Source: a virus
Reading direction: 5' to 3' (one strand)
DNA: 53,694 bases
IMG/VR virus record: IMGVR_UViG_3300025108_000005
The position numbers were made by a program, and so were the translations under genes. Under the pieces are notes generated by a model, which saw only the letters and a program-made list of their open reading frames with translations, was not told the origin of the DNA and did not search any database. Of this stretch, positions 22,797-53,694 are shown piece after piece; position 1 is the stretch's first letter, and each line of letters starts with the position of its first letter.

Positions 22797-25700
22797 TTAC
22801 CCCGCAAGAGCTTTCAGGAAGTTATCCGCAGTGCGATTTAAACCCGCCATTCCACCATCCTGCATAGGACGAATGTTCGCAGAAATCGGAGCAATCTTAG
22901 GCGCACGCGTTGTAATGCGCGCCATAATATCATCAAATCTACGAGATGATGGAATACCTATCCCAATTGGAGATGATACCGTATCAGACTTCTCCTCTTC
23001 CGCAGGTGGCTCACACATGTCTGTATCAGAGTTGTAAACATAACCCTCATCGTTACAGACCTTGTTTCCATCATCATCAGTTGTGTAGTTCTTTATCTCT
23101 TCAGAACCATCGTCACCGCCAGTGGTTGTTTCAGTCACACCAAGAGCCTCGGCAACGTTCTGACCGCCGCCAACTTCAAGTGGAACAGTTCCGTCTGTAA
23201 TCTCAACTACATTGCCACCTGCATCAACAAAGAACTCTTTACCATCTGAGGTAATAAATCCTTGCTCCGTTGACATGCCCGTAGGATCTGCACTCGCAGC
23301 AGTTGATTGTGCGCCAAAGACCTGCTGGAAGCGATCATAATCTGAAACACCATCACCATCTGCGTCAGCTTTATATGCAGGATTGCTATATGCAGGAAGA
23401 CTTAACGTCTGACCAACTGTAAGAGCGTCAGCTTGTGCATTCAGGCCAGAACCCCTTAGTGAATCAATCATATCCTGTGTGACAGTAAATGAAGATGCCT
23501 CAGAACTCGGCGGCATAAAGGCCATAATATCATCTGCCGCAAGAACCTTATCTGCAAAGGTATCCATAGTGCTTATGTCAAACCCAATGTAGTTGCCATC
23601 CTCATCAGTCTTCGGTGTTGCGCCATTCTGTAGCGCATACACATGCTGATCAATAATCGCCTGACGATTCTCACGGCTTGAGCCACGCAGCTTGTCAGCC
23701 AAAGGCTTGCCAAGACCAAAGCCCAAGCCACCAATAACGTCATAGAAAATTGACTCTATGCCAGTCGGCTCTGCCTGATCGCCAATTTGCTGCTTGATCT
23801 TCTCAACATTATCATCGCGACGACCTTGCTCAACCTGTCTGCCAGTCTCACTCGCAGCACCAATCGTAAGAGCAGTAGAACCTGCGCCCTTATCCAAGCC
23901 ACGCGAAATTCCCTCAAACTGCTTACCAAGCGCAGCTTCAAACTCTTCTGGAGTCAACTTGCCACTCTTCAAATCAGAAAGACCCTTGCCGCCAGCCAAG
24001 TCATTCATAACCAAATGCGTACCAATACGCTCCTGAGTGCCCTCGTCAAACTTAGCATTAGGATCAACAATTCCCTGATCAACCAAGGACTGCAACGTAG
24101 AGCCAACAACCTGATATTTACCAGCAGGCGTAGAAATAACACCAGAACCATCTGCACGAGTCATGCCACGCTGCGTGTTAACGCCTTGAGAGTAAGCAGC
24201 ATAAGAATCTTTGCCACGCAGATTCTGGAAGTCCAAGACCTCCTGAACCGTCATGTTCGTTAAATCAACGCCAAAGCGCCCCTCTTGACCACCAAGAAGA
24301 CGACCATAACCGCCCTCATCAGCCGTACCTTCAGCGCGAGAAATACGATTTTTAATCTCAGAGAGCGAAGTATAACCAGCTTCTGGCGGAGCAAAATCCT
24401 GAACAGTAGATGGAGCACCCAATCCACGCTCCAGATCAGAAACAGGACCACTTGGAAGCCCCATATCATCATCCGTAAGTGGAACATTAGTAACACGATC
24501 ACGATCAAATGGGTCCATGTCAGCATCAAGGTTCCGACCAGCCTTAGATACGTTAAGGTCAAGTATATTATCGTCAATGCCATACGTCTCTATCCCTCGA
24601 GAAGATGCAGGTAGAAATTGAGTAATGTCAGGGTCATTCATAGATGTTATAGGCTGAACTCCTAAAACACCGCCTCTAGTATCACCTAAAGGTGGAAGAC
24701 CGCCAACGCCAGCAATGTCGCTGTAAGTAATTGGTGACGGATCAAAGATATTAATCTCACGACCCTCTGGATAATTCTGAAGATACGTTGGGTAAGCCCT
24801 AGCAGCGGCTCGATTCGCTTGCTCTGGACTGTCAAAAATACCTGATTCACGAGCCGTAGCAGAAAAACTATCTATTCCCTGCTGACCAGAACCATACAAA
24901 CGTAACTGCGCAGCAAACGCACGATCAGCCGTGTCAGCCGCCGCCTGCGAGTCATGCTGATTCCCACGGCGATCCGTATATACAGGGGCAGAAACAGGAT
25001 CAATAACACTAATCACAGACGATCCGGCATTACCAGATGACGCAGTATTCAAAATATCATCAATGCTAGAACCAGTCGCAACAGTCACATTGCCACCACC
25101 AGTGTCATACGTGGTCGTACCAGTCCCAGATGTTAAATCCGCAACCGTTACAGTCTTGTCAGAACCACCAACACCAAGATCAGCGTCCTTCGCACTCGTG
25201 TTTACAGAACTTGAATCATCATCGCCGCCAAAAATCGCATCGTGATAATCAGCTACATTGTCAAAAGTATTCCCGCCATAGCTGAAACTCGTATTATCAT
25301 CCGCCTGAACGGCAGCATTCGCAATCGCATCTAAACTTACATTTCCAGATGGACCAATTGAAGAACTGTCATCATTATCGCTCTTCGCCATATCTTTTAG
25401 ACTATCCCTCACCTTGTTAATCTCAGCATAATCCCTGCTAATCACACTTTCAGGCGGATAACTCGGGATACCAGCAGGACCAGAAATGCCTGAACCACCA
25501 AAACTACGAAGCAAAGCCTCCTCATCCTGATTAATATACGCCAACATATGCGGCTGATCAGCAATCATAGTGCTGCGAGGAACAGAATCACCGCCGAAAG
25601 GGCCAGATACCTCTCCCCCCATACGCATATTATTCACATCGCCATACCCATAAAGATCAACATCACCAGTATCTATAGGCGCAATACCAGAATACATCGT

Positions 25701-27125
25701 CCCATAAGTCGGCGTACTCAAGAAATCAAAAATATCAATCTCAACAGGTCGCGCAGGCAATTTAATCGCCCCAATAGGACTCGTAGCAACCATTTCAGGA
25801 CCGTAACTCGTCGTTAAACCACCCGTAATAGGATCAGTCATATACTGAGAAACACTCGTAGGAATGTTGACCTTAGGGCCAAATAATGCAGCCTGCTCAC
25901 GCGTACCCAGCGTAACAACGCCAGTCTCAGGATCAACAGTGTCATAACCACCAGTCGTCCTACCAACATCACCAGTAAACTGACTGTAATCAATCTCATT
26001 AACCTCACTAGGATCAACAGGAGCAGCCGTATAACTACCAGTGCCAAAATTACCACCAGCACCTACCGCACTGCCAGCACCAGCTTGCGCCCCAGTAATC
26101 GTAGAAACAGGAGCAGAAGTAACCTTATCCACAGAAACAGAAGCCTGAGAAGGTGCCTCATATTCACCAACATAAACACGAACAGGAGTCCAACCTGTCT
26201 CGTCACTACCCTCCCAGTTAAGAACATTATCACCAAAACGATAATTCATAATGTCCGCCATATCCATAACAGCACCACGAGTGCTGCGGTAACGACCATC
26301 ACCCAAATCCTCATAGCCAGCATTCAATAAATTAGAACGAACCATAGACTCACGAGCAGGATCAGACGAATAACCAGAACGTGCCTCACCCATATAATCA
26401 AAACCCTGACCCTCAATCGCAGATTTAGCCGCAGAAATACTGCCATAACCAGCCTGAACCGTCGGGTCTAAATCATCACGACCAAAAAGCGCATTAAACG
26501 AAACAGGATTACCCGAAGAATCAACAACCTTGTAACGCTCACCGCTACGAACAACATTCAAATCAGAACCAGAACCTAAACCAGACGAAGATGACTCCTT
26601 AACCAAGTCATAATACTCATCCATACTACCAATCCCCTCACCCAAAACAGGGGGACCACCATCCTCAAAATACTGTACAGGACCACCATCAGCATAACCA
26701 AAAATATCAACCTCACCACCCATAGCCATAGGACGAGGCGCCATAGACTGCATCGGAGGAGTACGCATCATAGGAGTGCCCGGCGCAACCATACGCTGCT
26801 GTGGCATCATCTGGGGCGGCATCGCACTCTGAGGCTGTGGCATGGACGCACCCAAACCCTGATTGCGACCCAACATCCCCTCTAACGCATCGCCAAAACG
26901 ACGACGACGACCCGCCGTAGATCCCTGCATCTGCTGACCCTGAGGCATAGGTGGCATCTGAGGAGGTGGACCCCCAGCCAACGGCATCGGAGGCATAGGC
27001 GCAAAAGGATTCGGAGGGGGAGCAGATGGCATGCCCGGTGAAGGCGGCATACCACCCATAGGCTGCATCGGTGCAGGCATTCCGGGCATCGGCGGGGGAG
27101 TCATTCCAGTCTTAACTGCAGGCAT
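22797..27125 (-). CDS. Giant internal-virion/ejection-type protein (1442 aa) with Met/Pro-rich N-terminus and lytic transglycosylase domain
   Basis: Start re-set to the ATG at 27123-27125 with SD AGGAGA. It is a single ORF, and the stop abuts the terL start. Confidence 0.9.
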   Translation of the reverse strand: MPAVKTGMTPPPMPGMPAPMQPMGGMPPSPGMPSAPPPNPFAPMPPMPLAGGPPPQMPPMPQGQQMQGSTAGRRRRFGDALEGMLGRNQGLGASMPQPQSAMPPQMMPQQRMVAPGTPMMRTPPMQSMAPRPMAMGGEVDIFGYADGGPVQYFEDGGPPVLGEGIGSMDEYYDLVKESSSSGLGSGSDLNVVRSGERYKVVDSSGNPVSFNALFGRDDLDPTVQAGYGSISAAKSAIEGQGFDYMGEARSGYSSDPARESMVRSNLLNAGYEDLGDGRYRSTRGAVMDMADIMNYRFGDNVLNWEGSDETGWTPVRVYVGEYEAPSQASVSVDKVTSAPVSTITGAQAGAGSAVGAGGNFGTGSYTAAPVDPSEVNEIDYSQFTGDVGRTTGGYDTVDPETGVVTLGTREQAALFGPKVNIPTSVSQYMTDPITGGLTTSYGPEMVATSPIGAIKLPARPVEIDIFDFLSTPTYGTMYSGIAPIDTGDVDLYGYGDVNNMRMGGEVSGPFGGDSVPRSTMIADQPHMLAYINQDEEALLRSFGGSGISGPAGIPSYPPESVISRDYAEINKVRDSLKDMAKSDNDDSSSIGPSGNVSLDAIANAAVQADDNTSFSYGGNTFDNVADYHDAIFGGDDDSSSVNTSAKDADLGVGGSDKTVTVADLTSGTGTTTYDTGGGNVTVATGSSIDDILNTASSGNAGSSVISVIDPVSAPVYTDRRGNQHDSQAAADTADRAFAAQLRLYGSGQQGIDSFSATARESGIFDSPEQANRAAARAYPTYLQNYPEGREINIFDPSPITYSDIAGVGGLPPLGDTRGGVLGVQPITSMNDPDITQFLPASSRGIETYGIDDNILDLNVSKAGRNLDADMDPFDRDRVTNVPLTDDDMGLPSGPVSDLERGLGAPSTVQDFAPPEAGYTSLSEIKNRISRAEGTADEGGYGRLLGGQEGRFGVDLTNMTVQEVLDFQNLRGKDSYAAYSQGVNTQRGMTRADGSGVISTPAGKYQVVGSTLQSLVDQGIVDPNAKFDEGTQERIGTHLVMNDLAGGKGLSDLKSGKLTPEEFEAALGKQFEGISRGLDKGAGSTALTIGAASETGRQVEQGRRDDNVEKIKQQIGDQAEPTGIESIFYDVIGGLGFGLGKPLADKLRGSSRENRQAIIDQHVYALQNGATPKTDEDGNYIGFDISTMDTFADKVLAADDIMAFMPPSSEASSFTVTQDMIDSLRGSGLNAQADALTVGQTLSLPAYSNPAYKADADGDGVSDYDRFQQVFGAQSTAASADPTGMSTEQGFITSDGKEFFVDAGGNVVEITDGTVPLEVGGGQNVAEALGVTETTTGGDDGSEEIKNYTTDDDGNKVCNDEGYVYNSDTDMCEPPAEEEKSDTVSSPIGIGIPSSRRFDDIMARITTRAPKIAPISANIRPMQDGGMAGLNRTADNFLKALAG
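23980..24350 (-). other. Lambda-R-like (GH104-type) lytic transglycosylase domain inside the giant protein
   Basis: RAEGTADEGGYGRLLGG...STPAGKYQVVGSTL parallels lambda R WSEGT...GYDVIVGG...STGAGRYQLL. The putative catalytic Glu codon is at 24330-24332. Confidence 0.65.
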
Positions 27126-27178
27126 CCAATAAATTCTCCTAAACGAACCTAACACGCATCCTAACAGCTACTCAAAAT

Positions 27179-27418
27179 TTAATCAATAATCTCCAACAAT
27201 CCATTACGAATCATGCTACGCGCCAAACTATCCCGGTCCGTAAAACAATAATGATCACCACTCCACTCACACATCTCAATCGCCATCCTGCGCAAAAAAA
27301 TATCCTCACGCTCTCCAGATCCCAAAACATGACCCGCATGCAAAATCGGAACAACCTCTCCCGCAGTCTGACCATCAAACTCTAAACTCGTACCGTAACT
27401 CAACCTAAATGTCGGCAT
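27179..27418 (-). CDS. Hypothetical small protein (first gene of the late operon)
   Basis: Start re-set to the ATG at 27416-27418 (MPTFRLSYG...). 79 aa. Confidence 0.6.
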   Translation of the reverse strand: MPTFRLSYGTSLEFDGQTAGEVVPILHAGHVLGSGEREDIFLRRMAIEMCEWSGDHYCFTDRDSLARSMIRNGLLEIID

Positions 27419-27549
27419 AACTCTTCCCCATCTCCAATAACTTCGGCAATCCAATCGGAGCAGAATAACCCTCACCATGAGAGTTCTTACCCTGCAACAG
27501 GCATAAAACTCGGCCTCATATGCCCTCTCCTTATACTAACATGTGGTAC

Positions 27550-27579
27550 TTTATGGGACAGTCTAGGGTACCTTGTCAA
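27550..27579 (-). promoter_or_regulatory. Sigma70-like promoter for the late operon
   Basis: Minus strand reads TTGACA(27574-27579)-18 nt-CATAAA(27550-27555). The -35 overlaps an iteron copy. Confidence 0.45.
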
Positions 27580-27676
27580 GCCGTAGGGTACCTTGGAAGG
27601 GACAAACGGTGACATCCACCTTTAGGGGGTGTCCCTTGTCCATAGGGTACCTTGAAGGGCTTAGGGTACCTTGTGA

Positions 27677-27696
27677 TTTTTTTAAAAAATTTTTTT
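27677..27696. promoter_or_regulatory. T7-A6-T7 tract (possible DNA-unwinding element)
   Basis: tttttttaaaaaattttttt lies immediately next to the iteron pairs. Confidence 0.5.
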
Positions 27697-27790
27697 GTGG
27701 TGACTGTAGGTGGATTTCTTAGTGTAAGTGCTGTCCGACACGCGCCAGAATATAGGGGGGGGTGCATGGCCCCCATATCCCCCGTTTCTA

Positions 27791-27802
27791 GAACAATTGT
27801 TC
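27791..27802. promoter_or_regulatory. Perfect 12-bp palindrome GAACAATTGTTC (copy 1)
   Basis: Exact palindrome in intergenic DNA between the amidoligase terminator and the iterons. Confidence 0.85.
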
Positions 27803-27829
27803 GGTTTTCTTAGGGTACCTTGGAAAAGC

Positions 27830-27852
27830 AAAAAAGCCCGCACTAGGCGGGC
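27830..27852 (-). terminator. Rho-independent terminator after the amidoligase gene
   Basis: Minus strand reads GCCCGCctagtGCGGGC followed by tttttt. Confidence 0.75.
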
Positions 27853-27882
27853 TTCTCTGTGGCTGTGGCATGGTCTTGACGC

Positions 27883-28953: not shown

Positions 28954-29068
28954 TGTTTTTGTTACCTTTTTTCTAGATTGTAGGGCAAAGCTGTCGCCCT
29001 ATACCTAGTTTATGCGCCATTTTTTCCCATAATACAAGGGGTTTTGTGGGATATTGTGGGATAAACCA

Positions 29069-29080
29069 GAACAATTGTTC
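29069..29080. promoter_or_regulatory. Perfect 12-bp palindrome GAACAATTGTTC (copy 3)
   Basis: Lies upstream of the amidoligase gene. The extended match GAACAATTGTTCGGGTT(A/G)TTG is shared with copy 4. Confidence 0.85.
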
Positions 29081-29110
29081 GGGTTATTGATTTGACCAAC
29101 GCCGCGACAC

Positions 29111-29138
29111 AAAAAAAGCGCGCCAAAATTGACGCGCG
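29111..29138 (-). terminator. Rho-independent terminator (minus strand)
   Basis: Minus strand reads GCGCGtCAAttTTGgCGCGC followed by ttttttt. Confidence 0.7.
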
Positions 29139-29183
29139 AAAATCGGTTTTTTTTATATTTATAGAGAACGCGCGCGATCATGC

Positions 29184-29236
29184 GTGTGTATATGTGTATA
29201 TGTGTGTAGTTATATATACATAGGTATATATACTAT
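29184..29236. repeat. Alternating purine-pyrimidine (TG/TA)n tract
   Basis: gtgtgtatatgtgtatatgtgtgtagttatatatacataggtatatatactata. Confidence 0.85.
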
Positions 29237-29237
29237 A

Positions 29238-29299
29238 CCCCGAACCCCGAAGCCCGAAGCCCGAACCCCGAAAGCCCGACCCCGAAGGATCAGGCCCGA
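29238..29299. repeat. Tandem heptamer array (G/C)CCCGAA (TTCGGG(G/C) on the minus strand)
   Basis: Five perfect back-to-back 7-mers at 29238-29272, then three more units with small spacers up to 29299. Confidence 0.9.
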
Positions 29300-29303
29300 T
29301 TGT

Positions 29304-30143: not shown

Positions 30144-30172
30144 ACATTATCCCACACATTATTATATGTCAA
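30144..30172 (-). promoter_or_regulatory. Sigma70-like promoter for the 3-gene cassette
   Basis: Minus strand reads TTGACA(30167-30172)-17 nt-TAATGT. The spacer carries TGGGATAatgTGGGAT. Confidence 0.45.
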
Positions 30173-30195
30173 CACAAAATATAAAAAAAATTATG

Positions 30196-30486
30196 CCGGG
30201 CCGTGCCGGGTAAAACTGCCGGGGATTCATCCGGGCGCGAACAATTGTTCGGGTTGTTGTTCCGGGAATGCGTCGGGAGTTTACCGGGAAGGAGTTCCGG
30301 GCAGGCCAGCGACGGGAAGATGTTACCGGGGAGCTTTACCCGAACAATTTCTCGGGTTATACTATACCCGGAAGCCCGAATCCCGAATGCCCGGAGAGCC
30401 GCAGAGCGCCCCTAAGAGTTAACCCGAACAATTTAGGCACCCAGACACCCCGAAAACCCGAAACCCCGACCAGACGGCCCCGAAAA
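30196..30486. repeat. Dispersed short-repeat array: about 12 (C/T)CGGG units at 10-14-bp spacing, then about 7 CCCGAA units
   Basis: CCGGG/TCGGG at 30196, 30206, 30219, 30231, 30250, 30262, 30273, 30284, 30297, 30311, 30325. CCCGAA at about 30339, 30374, 30381, 30423, 30449, 30457, 30479. Confidence 0.85.
30239..30250. promoter_or_regulatory. Perfect palindrome GAACAATTGTTC (copy 4; 14-bp CGAACAATTGTTCG here)
   Basis: Embedded in the CCGGG array. Confidence 0.85.
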
Positions 30487-30531
30487 CGGCTCTGAGGGCG
30501 GGCGGAAGCCCCTCCCCTCCAAGAGTTCCCG

Positions 30532-31129: not shown

Positions 31130-31190
31130 GTGCTACATTTCCCAAAATATCCCAACATTGCATCGGGCTGCGCTGCGTTAAAAAACATCA

Positions 31191-31226
31191 GGGGGGGGTT
31201 AGTATATACCCCCCCTTATAGGGGGG
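31191..31226. repeat. Homopolymer G8 / C7 / G6 tracts able to form alternative hairpins
   Basis: G8 at 31191-31198, C7 at 31209-31215, G6 at 31221-31226. The TATAGGGGGGTG box also occurs at 27751-27764. Confidence 0.85.
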
Positions 31227-31390
31227 TGACGTAGATAACGTAAATTAACCTATTGATTTTATTACGTTATTTACGTCAAAACGACTTTTTAACGTAATTC
31301 CCGTAAATCGTTAAACCGTTGATTTTATTACATATTCTACGTTACGTTACTTACGTCAGCTTTTGACGTAAATTATTTTGACGTAAATTA
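31227..31390. repeat. ACGT-core repeat array (TGACGTAA / TTACGTCA), including a perfect tandem 15-mer
   Basis: About 10 ACGT cores in 160 bp. ttttgacgtaaatta occurs at 31361-31375 and 31376-31390, with inverted copies at 31270-31281 and about 31350. ttgattttattac is duplicated at 31253 and 31319 (66-bp period). Confidence 0.9.
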
Positions 31391-31415
31391 ATATAAAATA
31401 GTTTATAAAAAGTTA

Positions 31416-31445
31416 TTGACAGTCCCAAACTATCCCATATATAAG
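31416..31445 (+). promoter_or_regulatory. Early rightward sigma70-like promoter
   Basis: TTGACA(31416-31421), spacer gtCCCAaacTATCCCAt, then TATATA/TATAAG. AAGGAGG lies before the ATG at 31484. Confidence 0.6.
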
Positions 31446-31483
31446 ATGTATATTCTAGTAAGCAAGGAGGCTACAGAATCCAC

Positions 31484-52833: not shown

Positions 52834-53222
52834 TATTTCTTACCCCCAAAAAACTTAGTTGCTGACCTGACGGCGAAGCTACTAGCGACGATTACACCCA
52901 AAGTATATTGATACCATTCTGGCATGGATTCCAATGCAGCGAATCCATTTGCGACAGCGTTTCTGCCAAACTCACCACAAAATGACAGCACAAGAGGGAT
53001 TGAAAAGAGCAAAACAAGATATTCATCTTTCCATGAGCTTTGGGTTCCTTGAGCCATAATCCGCTCCCAGTCCGCAACGCTTGTCTTTTCGCTGAGAAGG
53101 ATCTTGGATTTAGTTTCTGCCTCAGTGAGCTTTAACTTGGCTTCCGCTGCGGTTTTATCAGCTTTGCCCTGCAACCAGCTTCCAGCGAGGTTGGCGATTG
53201 GCCCTATAAATGCTTGTATCAT
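52833..53222 (-). CDS. Holin candidate (GTA-type 3-TM holin-like)
   Basis: 129 aa with an N-terminal amphipathic/coiled region and then hydrophobic helices. TAATG coupling to the endolysin. Confidence 0.65.
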   Translation of the reverse strand: MIQAFIGPIANLAGSWLQGKADKTAAEAKLKLTEAETKSKILLSEKTSVADWERIMAQGTQSSWKDEYLVLLFSIPLVLSFCGEFGRNAVANGFAALESMPEWYQYTLGVIVASSFAVRSATKFFGGKK

Positions 53223-53670: not shown

Positions 53671-53694
53671 GCCCCTGCTTCGCTAAAATTATAA
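53671..53694. repeat. Terminal overlap (copy of nt 1-24)
   Basis: Identical 24-mer. Confidence 0.95.

Follow-up and report, generated by a model that had tools for sequence, protein, structure and literature searches.

Organization of the predicted late-gene control region

The viral genome studied here is IMG/VR record IMGVR_UViG_3300025108_000005, whose whole stretch of 53,694 nucleotides is hereafter called the window. It carries a cluster of short direct repeats, hereafter boxes, between the gene of an amidoligase and the operon that encodes the large subunit of the terminase (TerL). This cis-element (27550-27860) is real and strongly conserved, and the sequence comparisons described below make it best read as the operator array of a late promoter, set within a control region of several parts. 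The window is a circular assembly of a genome of about 53.67 kb with a G+C content of 45.7%, the minus strand of which carries almost all genes; a direct repeat of 24 bp at its two ends (1-24 and 53671-53694) indicates that the genome is complete and was assembled as a circle or a concatemer. Along the minus strand, in order of descending coordinate, one finds the gene of the small terminase subunit (terS, 31056-30532; Pfam Terminase_2, E = 2.8e-10), small open reading frames (ORFs), the amidoligase gene (28953-27883, minus strand), a terminator and the repeat region, and then p99 (27179-27418), a protein of 1452 residues (22797-27155), TerL (22793-21312) and the portal protein. The first conserved gene of the late group, p99, has its true start at MPTFRLSYG and encodes 79 residues without an assignable family. 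Neither an RNA polymerase nor a DNA polymerase of phage type was found among the genes of the window; having no RNA polymerase of its own, the phage must rely for transcription on the host enzyme and hence on sigma-70-type promoters. It is apparently lytic, and no integrase or cI-like gene turned up when the proteins of the window were scanned against Pfam and PHROGs.

The first-pass annotation of the window had listed five exact copies of a 12-mer within 260 bp, some of them paired at a spacing of 19-20 bp and each containing the KpnI palindrome. All of this is borne out by our analysis: TAGGGTACCTTG starts at 27564, 27584, 27643, 27662 and 27811, in one orientation throughout and with start-to-start distances of 20, 59, 19 and 149 bp, and five of the eight GGTACC sites of the genome fall in the element. 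Such a number of copies lies far above the chance expectation for an exact 12-mer (about 0.006 in 2 x 53.7 kb), and a search allowing up to two mismatches added a single match in the window, at 53040. The conserved unit is the 10-mer AGGTACCCTA; it is read on the minus strand, which is the direction of transcription, and is usually preceded by a T-rich flank. The accessory features listed with the repeats are equally present, namely TTGACAAGGTACCCTA, the inverted repeat GGGACA...TGTCCC (27600-27635), a T7A6T7 tract and a G8/C5/C5 block.

Following the direction of transcription, the control region opens with the intrinsic terminator of the upstream operon, which extends from terS to the amidoligase gene. 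This terminator (27829-27859, minus strand) reads GCCCGC-CTAGT-GCGGGC followed by U6 and folds with -20.9 kcal/mol (z = -5.2, none of 200 shuffles being as good); an equivalent hairpin with a T-run is found in nearly all relatives. About 10 nt past the T-run lies the distal copy of the repeat, box A (27811-27822; CAAGGTACCCTA on the minus strand), and beyond it a perfect palindrome, GAACAATTGTTC (27791-27802; extended consensus CCGAACAATTGTTCGG), which represents a second, separate operator-like site. The palindrome occurs in four exact copies (27791, 28269, 29069 and 30239), a count that none of 100 shuffles reached, and is kept beside box A in relatives, while no 9-mer of the genome is more over-represented than its half-site CGAACAATT, which has 15 copies. 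A separate regulator probably binds the palindrome. Some of its half-sites abut start codons directly (50041, 51339).

The next part is a block of G- and C-runs (27756-27785, minus strand; ATCGGGG ... CCCCCCCC), after which comes a T- or TA-rich stretch. A second terminator and a conserved hairpin were both rejected as readings of this block, its sequence being conserved and its structure not: RNAalifold finds 0 pairs, the fold of the window copy has z = -1.06 and TATAT replaces the T-run in half of the family. It is followed by a conserved segment of about 30 nt (27698-27728, minus strand; family consensus TTACACTAAGTTTTCCACCAACAGYCACC), which is unmatched in cultured relatives, and by the A/T tract (27677-27696), which spans 20 bp, reads A7T6A7 on the minus strand and is probably an intrinsic bend or spacer. 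The length of this tract across the family ranges from 13 to about 23 bp; in many relatives it is reduced to ACAAAAACCTTTT, and loci of the L021 type are without it.

The proximal boxes follow, all on the minus strand. Box B (27662-27673) and box C (27643-27654) lie 19 bp apart and are separated from the remaining pair by an inserted segment (27596-27642, minus strand) common to relatives of the L007, L011 and L098 types. This segment contains the GGGACA...TGTCCC hairpin (-18.2 kcal/mol, z = -2.2), which is part of a 56-62 bp insertion limited to a subset of relatives. Box D (27584-27595) has its center near -46 from the predicted transcription start, and box E (27564-27575) is the promoter box. 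The predicted late promoter (27550-27579, minus strand) consists of a -35 element TTGACA (27579-27574), an 18-bp spacer and a -10 element CATAAA (27555-27550), the core AGGTACCCTA of box E covering spacer positions from about -30 to -21. One box overlaps the -35 element, as the first-pass annotation had noted, and TTGACA-N18-CATAAW matches exactly once in the genome, the promoter itself being a prediction. This sigma-70-type promoter, near consensus, would head the operon of p99, the 1452-residue protein, TerL and portal; a possible second, extended -10 element (TGTTAGTAT) lies about 20 nt downstream of it.

The short ORFs listed inside the repeat region do not keep their reading frames, as relatives differ by indels of 1-2 nt. 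A similarity search of GenBank phage DNA with the repeat region gave no match, and an Rfam scan of the region returned nothing near gathering scores, the best model being asX2, which overlaps the terminator (25.6 bits vs a threshold of 70). Literature on this phage group makes no mention of these elements.

Relatives and exchange of the putative operators

By TerL, the closest cultured phages (55-62% identity) are the HTVC023P-type pelagiphages HTVC027P and HTVC023P, phage 023Pt_psg01 and DSL-LC04; HTVC023P-type phages have been reported as the most abundant group of pelagiphages. None of these cultured relatives carries the motif, and other short repeats sit between their terS and terL. Uncultured relatives are abundant: many true ones were recovered by scanning IMG/VR and metagenomes, and at least 412 stretches of IMG/VR encode close relatives of the window TerS. 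A scan of bacterial genome contigs for a prophage or a clue to the host yielded 26 loci, all of them outside this phage family. For the comparisons that follow we typed 111 loci, 86 of type I, as in the window, and 25 of type II, and took the counts of anatomical features from 60 unique loci. The TerS search, made with an alignment of four sequences, returned only relatives 88-98% identical to the window TerS, and of the loci anchored on the helicase gene only one, truncated, extended to the element.

The order of parts in the direction of transcription is shared, namely terminator, box A, GAACAATTGTTC, G-run/C-run block, segment of about 30 nt, A/T tract, two to four boxes, promoter and ribosome-binding site. 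The 10-mer AGGTACCCTA is the invariant core in the 111 related contigs and is unchanged in every box of the 86 type I loci, while the proteins encoded on either side diverge to 33-65% identity; the range is 33-94% for the amidoligase and 35-93% for p99. Three boxes are present in 31 of the unique loci and four in 24; five are found in the window only. Neighboring proximal boxes are 20 bp apart, rarely 21 or 24, and alignment on the last box yields CCCC-TTGACA-GGTACCCTAGACTGTCC-CATAA(A/T), in which a perfect -35 and a good -10 are separated by a spacer of 17 bp (18 bp in the window). In about 50 of the 60 loci this last box occupies positions -30 to -21 of TTGACA-N17/18-CATAA(A/T), and its neighbors are centered near -46 and -66. 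The distance from box A to box B is 133-153 bp and bimodal (133-136 and 141-149); we examined strict helical phasing of this distance and found it unconvincing, given the spread over both ranges. The window element has the appearance of a recombinant: its first proximal pair, B and C, resembles the L093 type, and the hairpin with boxes D and E resembles the L098 type.

The promoter-proximal part of the region differs between types of locus. Type II loci retain every part from the terminator to the 30-nt segment, box A, palindrome and G/C block included; an CTATGGGTCCCATAG palindrome stands in place of the proximal boxes, and their promoter, TTGAC(N), holds GGGTCCC or GTCCCATAA in its spacer. 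In a third type (L016, L021 and L109), the palindrome ATGCAATCATTGCAT sits in the spacer of TTGACA-N17-ATATAT, and the operon just downstream includes a gene with an XRE-type helix-turn-helix (HTH) domain (PF01381, E = 4e-7, above cutoff). Type III loci also contain a pair of AGGTACCCTA boxes, located 620 bp from box A and 440 bp downstream of the promoter, inside this XRE gene, where they read QGTL..QGTL. Box A is found in all three types. Genomes typed in this way include IMGVR_UViG_3300046171_000083, which like the window is of type I, 3300021958_000098, 3300025759_000009 and 3300025889_000248 of type II, and Ga0222719_10000533 of type III. Three different operators at one promoter position provide the strongest argument for considering the proximal boxes as operators.

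This pattern recalls the heteroimmune lambdoid phages (cI/cro, OR and OL), in which the promoter architecture is kept and the operator exchanged; here the exchange involves three types at one spacer position, and one of them has an adjacent regulator gene of the XRE family. It differs in that type I operators are asymmetric direct repeats instead of palindromes and control a late structural operon. If a regulator separate from TerS reads the boxes, the operator swap would amount to an immunity-like modular evolution at the late promoter of an apparently lytic phage.

Proposed occupancy of the late promoter and competing readings

With modest confidence, and from sequence comparisons, we regard the AGGTACCCTA boxes as the targets of a single protein, shared by the family, that binds DNA sequence-specifically, and their arrangement here as an operator array that controls the late promoter. 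The first-pass annotation had proposed an array for an activator or repressor as one of two options, and this option is well supported by the fixed position of the last box in the spacer in about 50 of 60 loci, by the boxes 20 and 40 bp upstream of it and by the swapped operators of sister clades. The additional boxes, 20 bp upstream of the promoter box and also 40 bp upstream in relatives with four boxes, would lie on the same face of the helix. Delayed or limited expression from a near-consensus promoter calls for a repressor and not for an activator, and the predicted promoter is near consensus; general knowledge of promoters thus leads us to favor a repressor. SPP1 offers a precedent, as its TerS, of the same Pfam family as that of the window, binds at a pac site whose direct repeats extend over the terminase-operon promoters and thereby represses the operon (PMC4737164, PMC6316719). 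Bound cooperatively to the proximal boxes, such a protein would cover the -35 element and the spacer, so that a strong late promoter would be kept shut, or be shut again, whereas the distal box might assist through a bridge or loop that spans the A-tract, or might form a roadblock past the terminator. The best single candidate for the protein would be TerS, the alternatives being a small HTH protein such as that of the gene labeled q112, or a host factor.

A number of points weigh against this interpretation. The late promoter is a prediction from sequence. Among the 111 typed loci, none of the protein families or alleles encoded between -12 and +6 kb follows the type of proximal box (beyond -7 kb only 19 loci reach, so that power is low there). 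Box A persists in type II loci, the promoter of which uses another operator, and the box pair of type III lies 440 bp downstream of the promoter and within a gene; the boxes would hence have at least one role besides promoter occlusion. Looping, moreover, is weakly supported by the bimodal and loosely phased distance between boxes A and B.

The arrangement can be compared with the sites I1-I2 and O2 of AraC at pBAD, and with the looping operators of lac and gal, which likewise combine direct half-sites about two turns apart at the -35 with a distal copy more than 100 bp upstream and bendable DNA between them. The differences are that the window encodes no protein of the AraC family, that the proximal site lies in the spacer and not upstream of the -35, and that the distal distance is loosely phased (133-153 bp), with looping a matter of deduction. 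The kind of system is known; what distinguishes the present one is the location of asymmetric direct repeats in the spacer, the distal copy behind a terminator and the swappable operator cassettes. With its 10-bp box, a defined predicted promoter and three natural operator variants, the element offers a precise handle on late-gene control and possibly on packaging recognition.

The protein that reads the boxes was sought by clustering the ORFs of the typed loci and testing their presence, corrected for coverage, and their alleles against box type. Proteins universal in the typed loci are TerS, q112, a CXXCXGXG zinc-finger protein, q86, q145, q162, q131, p99 and the amidoligase, and no alignment column in any of them discriminates between box types; the identity of TerS sequences is 0.79 among type I phages, 0.90 among those of type II and 0.80 across the two types. 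Given that box A is universal, its reader is expected to be universal as well, which fits TerS. The products of q112 and r114 were examined as candidate regulators: they have no match in PDB or phage databases, and their HTH matches in Pfam are below cutoff (Fis-type in the case of q112).

TerS is also central to a serious, though less probable, alternative, according to which the element is a packaging (pac) site of the SPP1 kind: TerS would read the boxes and TerL would make its first cut in the segment between them, repression of the TerL operon being a secondary effect that switches the DNA from transcription to packaging. In SPP1, pac comprises three sets of direct repeats around the cut site and intrinsically bent DNA and overlaps the promoters PL1 and PL2, the operon being repressed by TerS (PMC4737164, PMC6316719). 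The likeness to this precedent, the SPP1/SF6 pac region of Bacillus phages (pacL-pacC-pacR, bound by the TerS protein G1P), is considerable. The window TerS belongs to Terminase_2, and its N-terminal HTH matches structures of the SF6 DNA-binding domain (4zc3, 3zqp and 2cmp, E ~1e-6); box A, the conserved segment with the A-tract and the boxes of the TerL-operon promoter can be seen as short direct repeats flanking a center, the bend of which is deduced from the A-tracts; and the promoter overlapped is that of the packaging-motor operon. TerS is, furthermore, the sole recognizable DNA binder in all three types of locus, and its N-terminal domain is 64-93% conserved in box-bearing phages, as against 41-87% for the C-terminal part and about 32% in box-less relatives. 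Box A and the constant module do not vary across the three locus types, and in this they resemble TerL, which is highly conserved; the site occurs once in the genome, and the box pair of type III lies within a coding region, as pac sites often do.

Against packaging stands the location of the element: it heads the TerL operon and lies 3 kb downstream of terS, from which four ORFs and a terminator separate it, whereas in phages of the SPP1 type pac is found where terS begins, at its 5' end. The proximal boxes are gone from type II phages despite a TerS 91-95% identical to that of the window, and no TerS column tracks box type. The repeats, too, differ in kind: SPP1 and SF6 have three loosely conserved types of box, and the DNA-binding domain of SF6 TerS has been found to possess little sequence specificity, whereas the boxes here are identical, invariant 10-mers. 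The ends of contigs falling inside the element are scattered, which is a weak point, headful ends being imprecise anyway. The same ends, six in number and each at a different nucleotide, are assembly breaks, and we rejected a cohesive-end (cos) or direct-terminal-repeat terminus on that account.

In a fuller scheme, which we consider rather unlikely, the constant module and the promoter boxes together would form a packaging-initiation site at the head of the TerL operon, where a TerS of the SPP1 family would read the 10-mer sequence-specifically, occupy the late promoter and switch the DNA to packaging, relatives having uncoupled the two functions by operator swap. Such reading of a 10-mer would contrast with the weak, shape-based recognition proposed for SF6. 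If it is true that TerS reads the boxes, this would constitute a clear case of sequence-specific recognition by a small terminase of the SPP1 family, coupled to the shut-off of a promoter.

An activator array appears improbable. A late activator of the phage, bound at about -46 and -66 and in the spacer, would recruit or remodel the host RNA polymerase, in the manner of the P1 Lpa sites at -22, of Mu C or of spacer binders of the MerR type. Boxes fixed relative to the promoter and on one helix face would suit such a protein, as would the 18-bp spacer of the window, slightly above the optimum. Phage late promoters that depend on an activator are typically without a good -35, yet the -35 here is a perfect TTGACA and most relatives combine it with an optimal spacer of 17 bp and CATAAT or CATAAA; the type III counterpart, with an XRE-type palindrome in the spacer, has the usual layout of a repressor site. 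Genes behind repeat-flanked promoters have been reported to form a distinct, highly expressed temporal class in HTVC027P, which is a point in favor of activation. An antiterminator like lambda Q was rejected, as the PHROG match in question (E = 9e-6) is due solely to a CXXCXGXG zinc finger of DnaJ type, carried by a protein about 96 residues long; terminators, moreover, lie upstream of the late promoter and not downstream of it, as the Q/Q-binding element arrangement would have it. A phage attachment site (attP) was also discarded, the 30-nt segment being unlike the 3' end of a tRNA; no integrase-like protein turned up in the general Pfam and PHROGs scans, no dedicated test of the attP reading having been made.

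The first-pass annotation had also advanced a replication origin, with the boxes as iterons for an initiator and the A/T tract as unwinding element, and this claim, which we judge highly improbable, is not supported: the region has 52% AT, slightly below the 54.3% of the genome, in relatives the tract is cut to 13 bp or missing altogether, and the 25 type II loci keep box A alone despite sharing the primase-helicase and other replication genes, so that the proximal boxes are dispensable. The direct repeats at two-turn spacing beside a 20-bp A/T tract do invite comparison with iteron origins (lambda ori, the plasmids P1, F and pSC101, and SaPI ori), in which repeats have a period of about 20 bp and, for P1, the repA promoter likewise lies within the iterons; those origins differ in having an AT-rich unwinding region and an adjacent initiator gene. 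As the annotation had itself remarked, no initiator gene is obvious here: the neighbors are the amidoligase, p99 and the low-complexity protein of 1452 residues, no Rep-like gene adjoins, and the first downstream gene differs between loci. The encoded primase-helicase could in principle recognize an origin, as does the alpha protein of P4; it belongs to a set of replication genes (with a Cas4-type exonuclease, a helicase and Sak4) at 35.5-43 kb, that is, 8-17 kb from the boxes. In relatives the 30-nt segment holds TTTTCCAC(C), which by our own reading agrees with the DnaA-box consensus at eight of nine positions, but the window has AAATCCACC, which is not a DnaA box. Cumulative GC skew shows no inflection at 27.6 kb, and the most AT-rich, repeat-dense locus lies elsewhere, at 31.2-31.45 kb, at the minimum of the GC skew.

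Other repeat regions and neighboring genes

The latter locus is a better candidate than the box region for an origin or for early control. It belongs to the divergent intergenic region upstream of terS (31150-31480), which lies where the cumulative GC skew reaches its minimum and, with 73.5% AT, includes the 200 bp richest in AT of the entire genome. Its repeats comprise at least eight copies of TTACGT(C)A / TGACGTAA (TTACGT/ACGTAA) in both orientations, tandem as well as inverted, two tandem 15-mers (TTTTGACGTAAATTA) and inverted repeats of 17 nt. Relatives retain the architecture with swapped repeats, about 40% of them being without the TTACGT repeat; L005, the sole such locus that was read, has ACTCCAGAAA. 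The type of repeat upstream of terS and the type of late promoter show no association.

Two further intergenic regions of the window, 28954-29303 and 30160-30531, contain arrays of TTCGGG(G) and CCCGG repeats ending in GGGTATAGTATA, which may represent a promoter type specific to the phage. An analogue exists in HTVC027P, where CAAGCTT arrays abut TTGACA...TATAGTATAGG (L023 8825-8860 and 9145-9170). In DSL-LC04 (L025 11203-11905), a gap of 700 bp upstream of TerL contains a terminator, one copy of CCGTGGGCCG, a pair of copies 163 bp further on (28 bp apart) and an A/T tract just before the gene. This looks like the same design built from different parts and suggests that the layout of the late control region is common in the wider group.

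The 10-mer AGGTACCCTA also forms tandem arrays with periods of 18, 22 or 24 bp in unrelated contigs (Bacteroides, Prevotella, Kiritimatiellae, Lachnospiraceae and others; L026, L027, L048, L061, L082 and others; L146-L170). These are other repeat elements or chance matches, unconnected with this phage. Avoidance of 6-bp palindromes is extreme throughout the genome: 20 of the 64 are absent (AAGCTT, with 0 vs about 23 expected, CGATCG, CAGCTG, CCCGGG, GGATCC, CTTAAG and others) and another 11 have a single copy, which suggests strong pressure from restriction systems. GGTACC is not depleted, its eight sites including the five in the boxes.

The interval between the late promoter and p99 is a hot spot of insertion across the family. 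In the window it holds a remnant ORF of 10 codons, MRPSFMPVAG and a stop (27487-27519, minus strand), behind an AAGGAG ribosome-binding site; this is the stump of a gene intact in L010 (4868-5560) and L011 (3680-4380), the full-length product of which, judged by eye from its sequence, looks like a GIY-YIG type. An additional ORF of about 260 residues lies in this interval in L011, and one of about 950 bp in L035, with box copies on both flanks.

The protein of 1452 residues, encoded directly upstream of TerL, has a low-complexity sequence with a high content of Met, Gln, Asp, Gly and Ala and could be assigned to no family in Pfam or PHROGs. Its position is kept throughout the family, and its length is highly variable (754-1452 residues). 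In the type II loci L176 (about 13.3-13.6 kb), L225, L244 and L248, a variant of this protein is accompanied by a gene for an RTX toxin acyltransferase of the HlyC family (PF02794, E = 2e-13). Together with the conserved genes for the amidoligase and gamma-glutamyl cyclotransferase, the HlyC-family gene hints at covalent modification of a virion protein or of an injected one.

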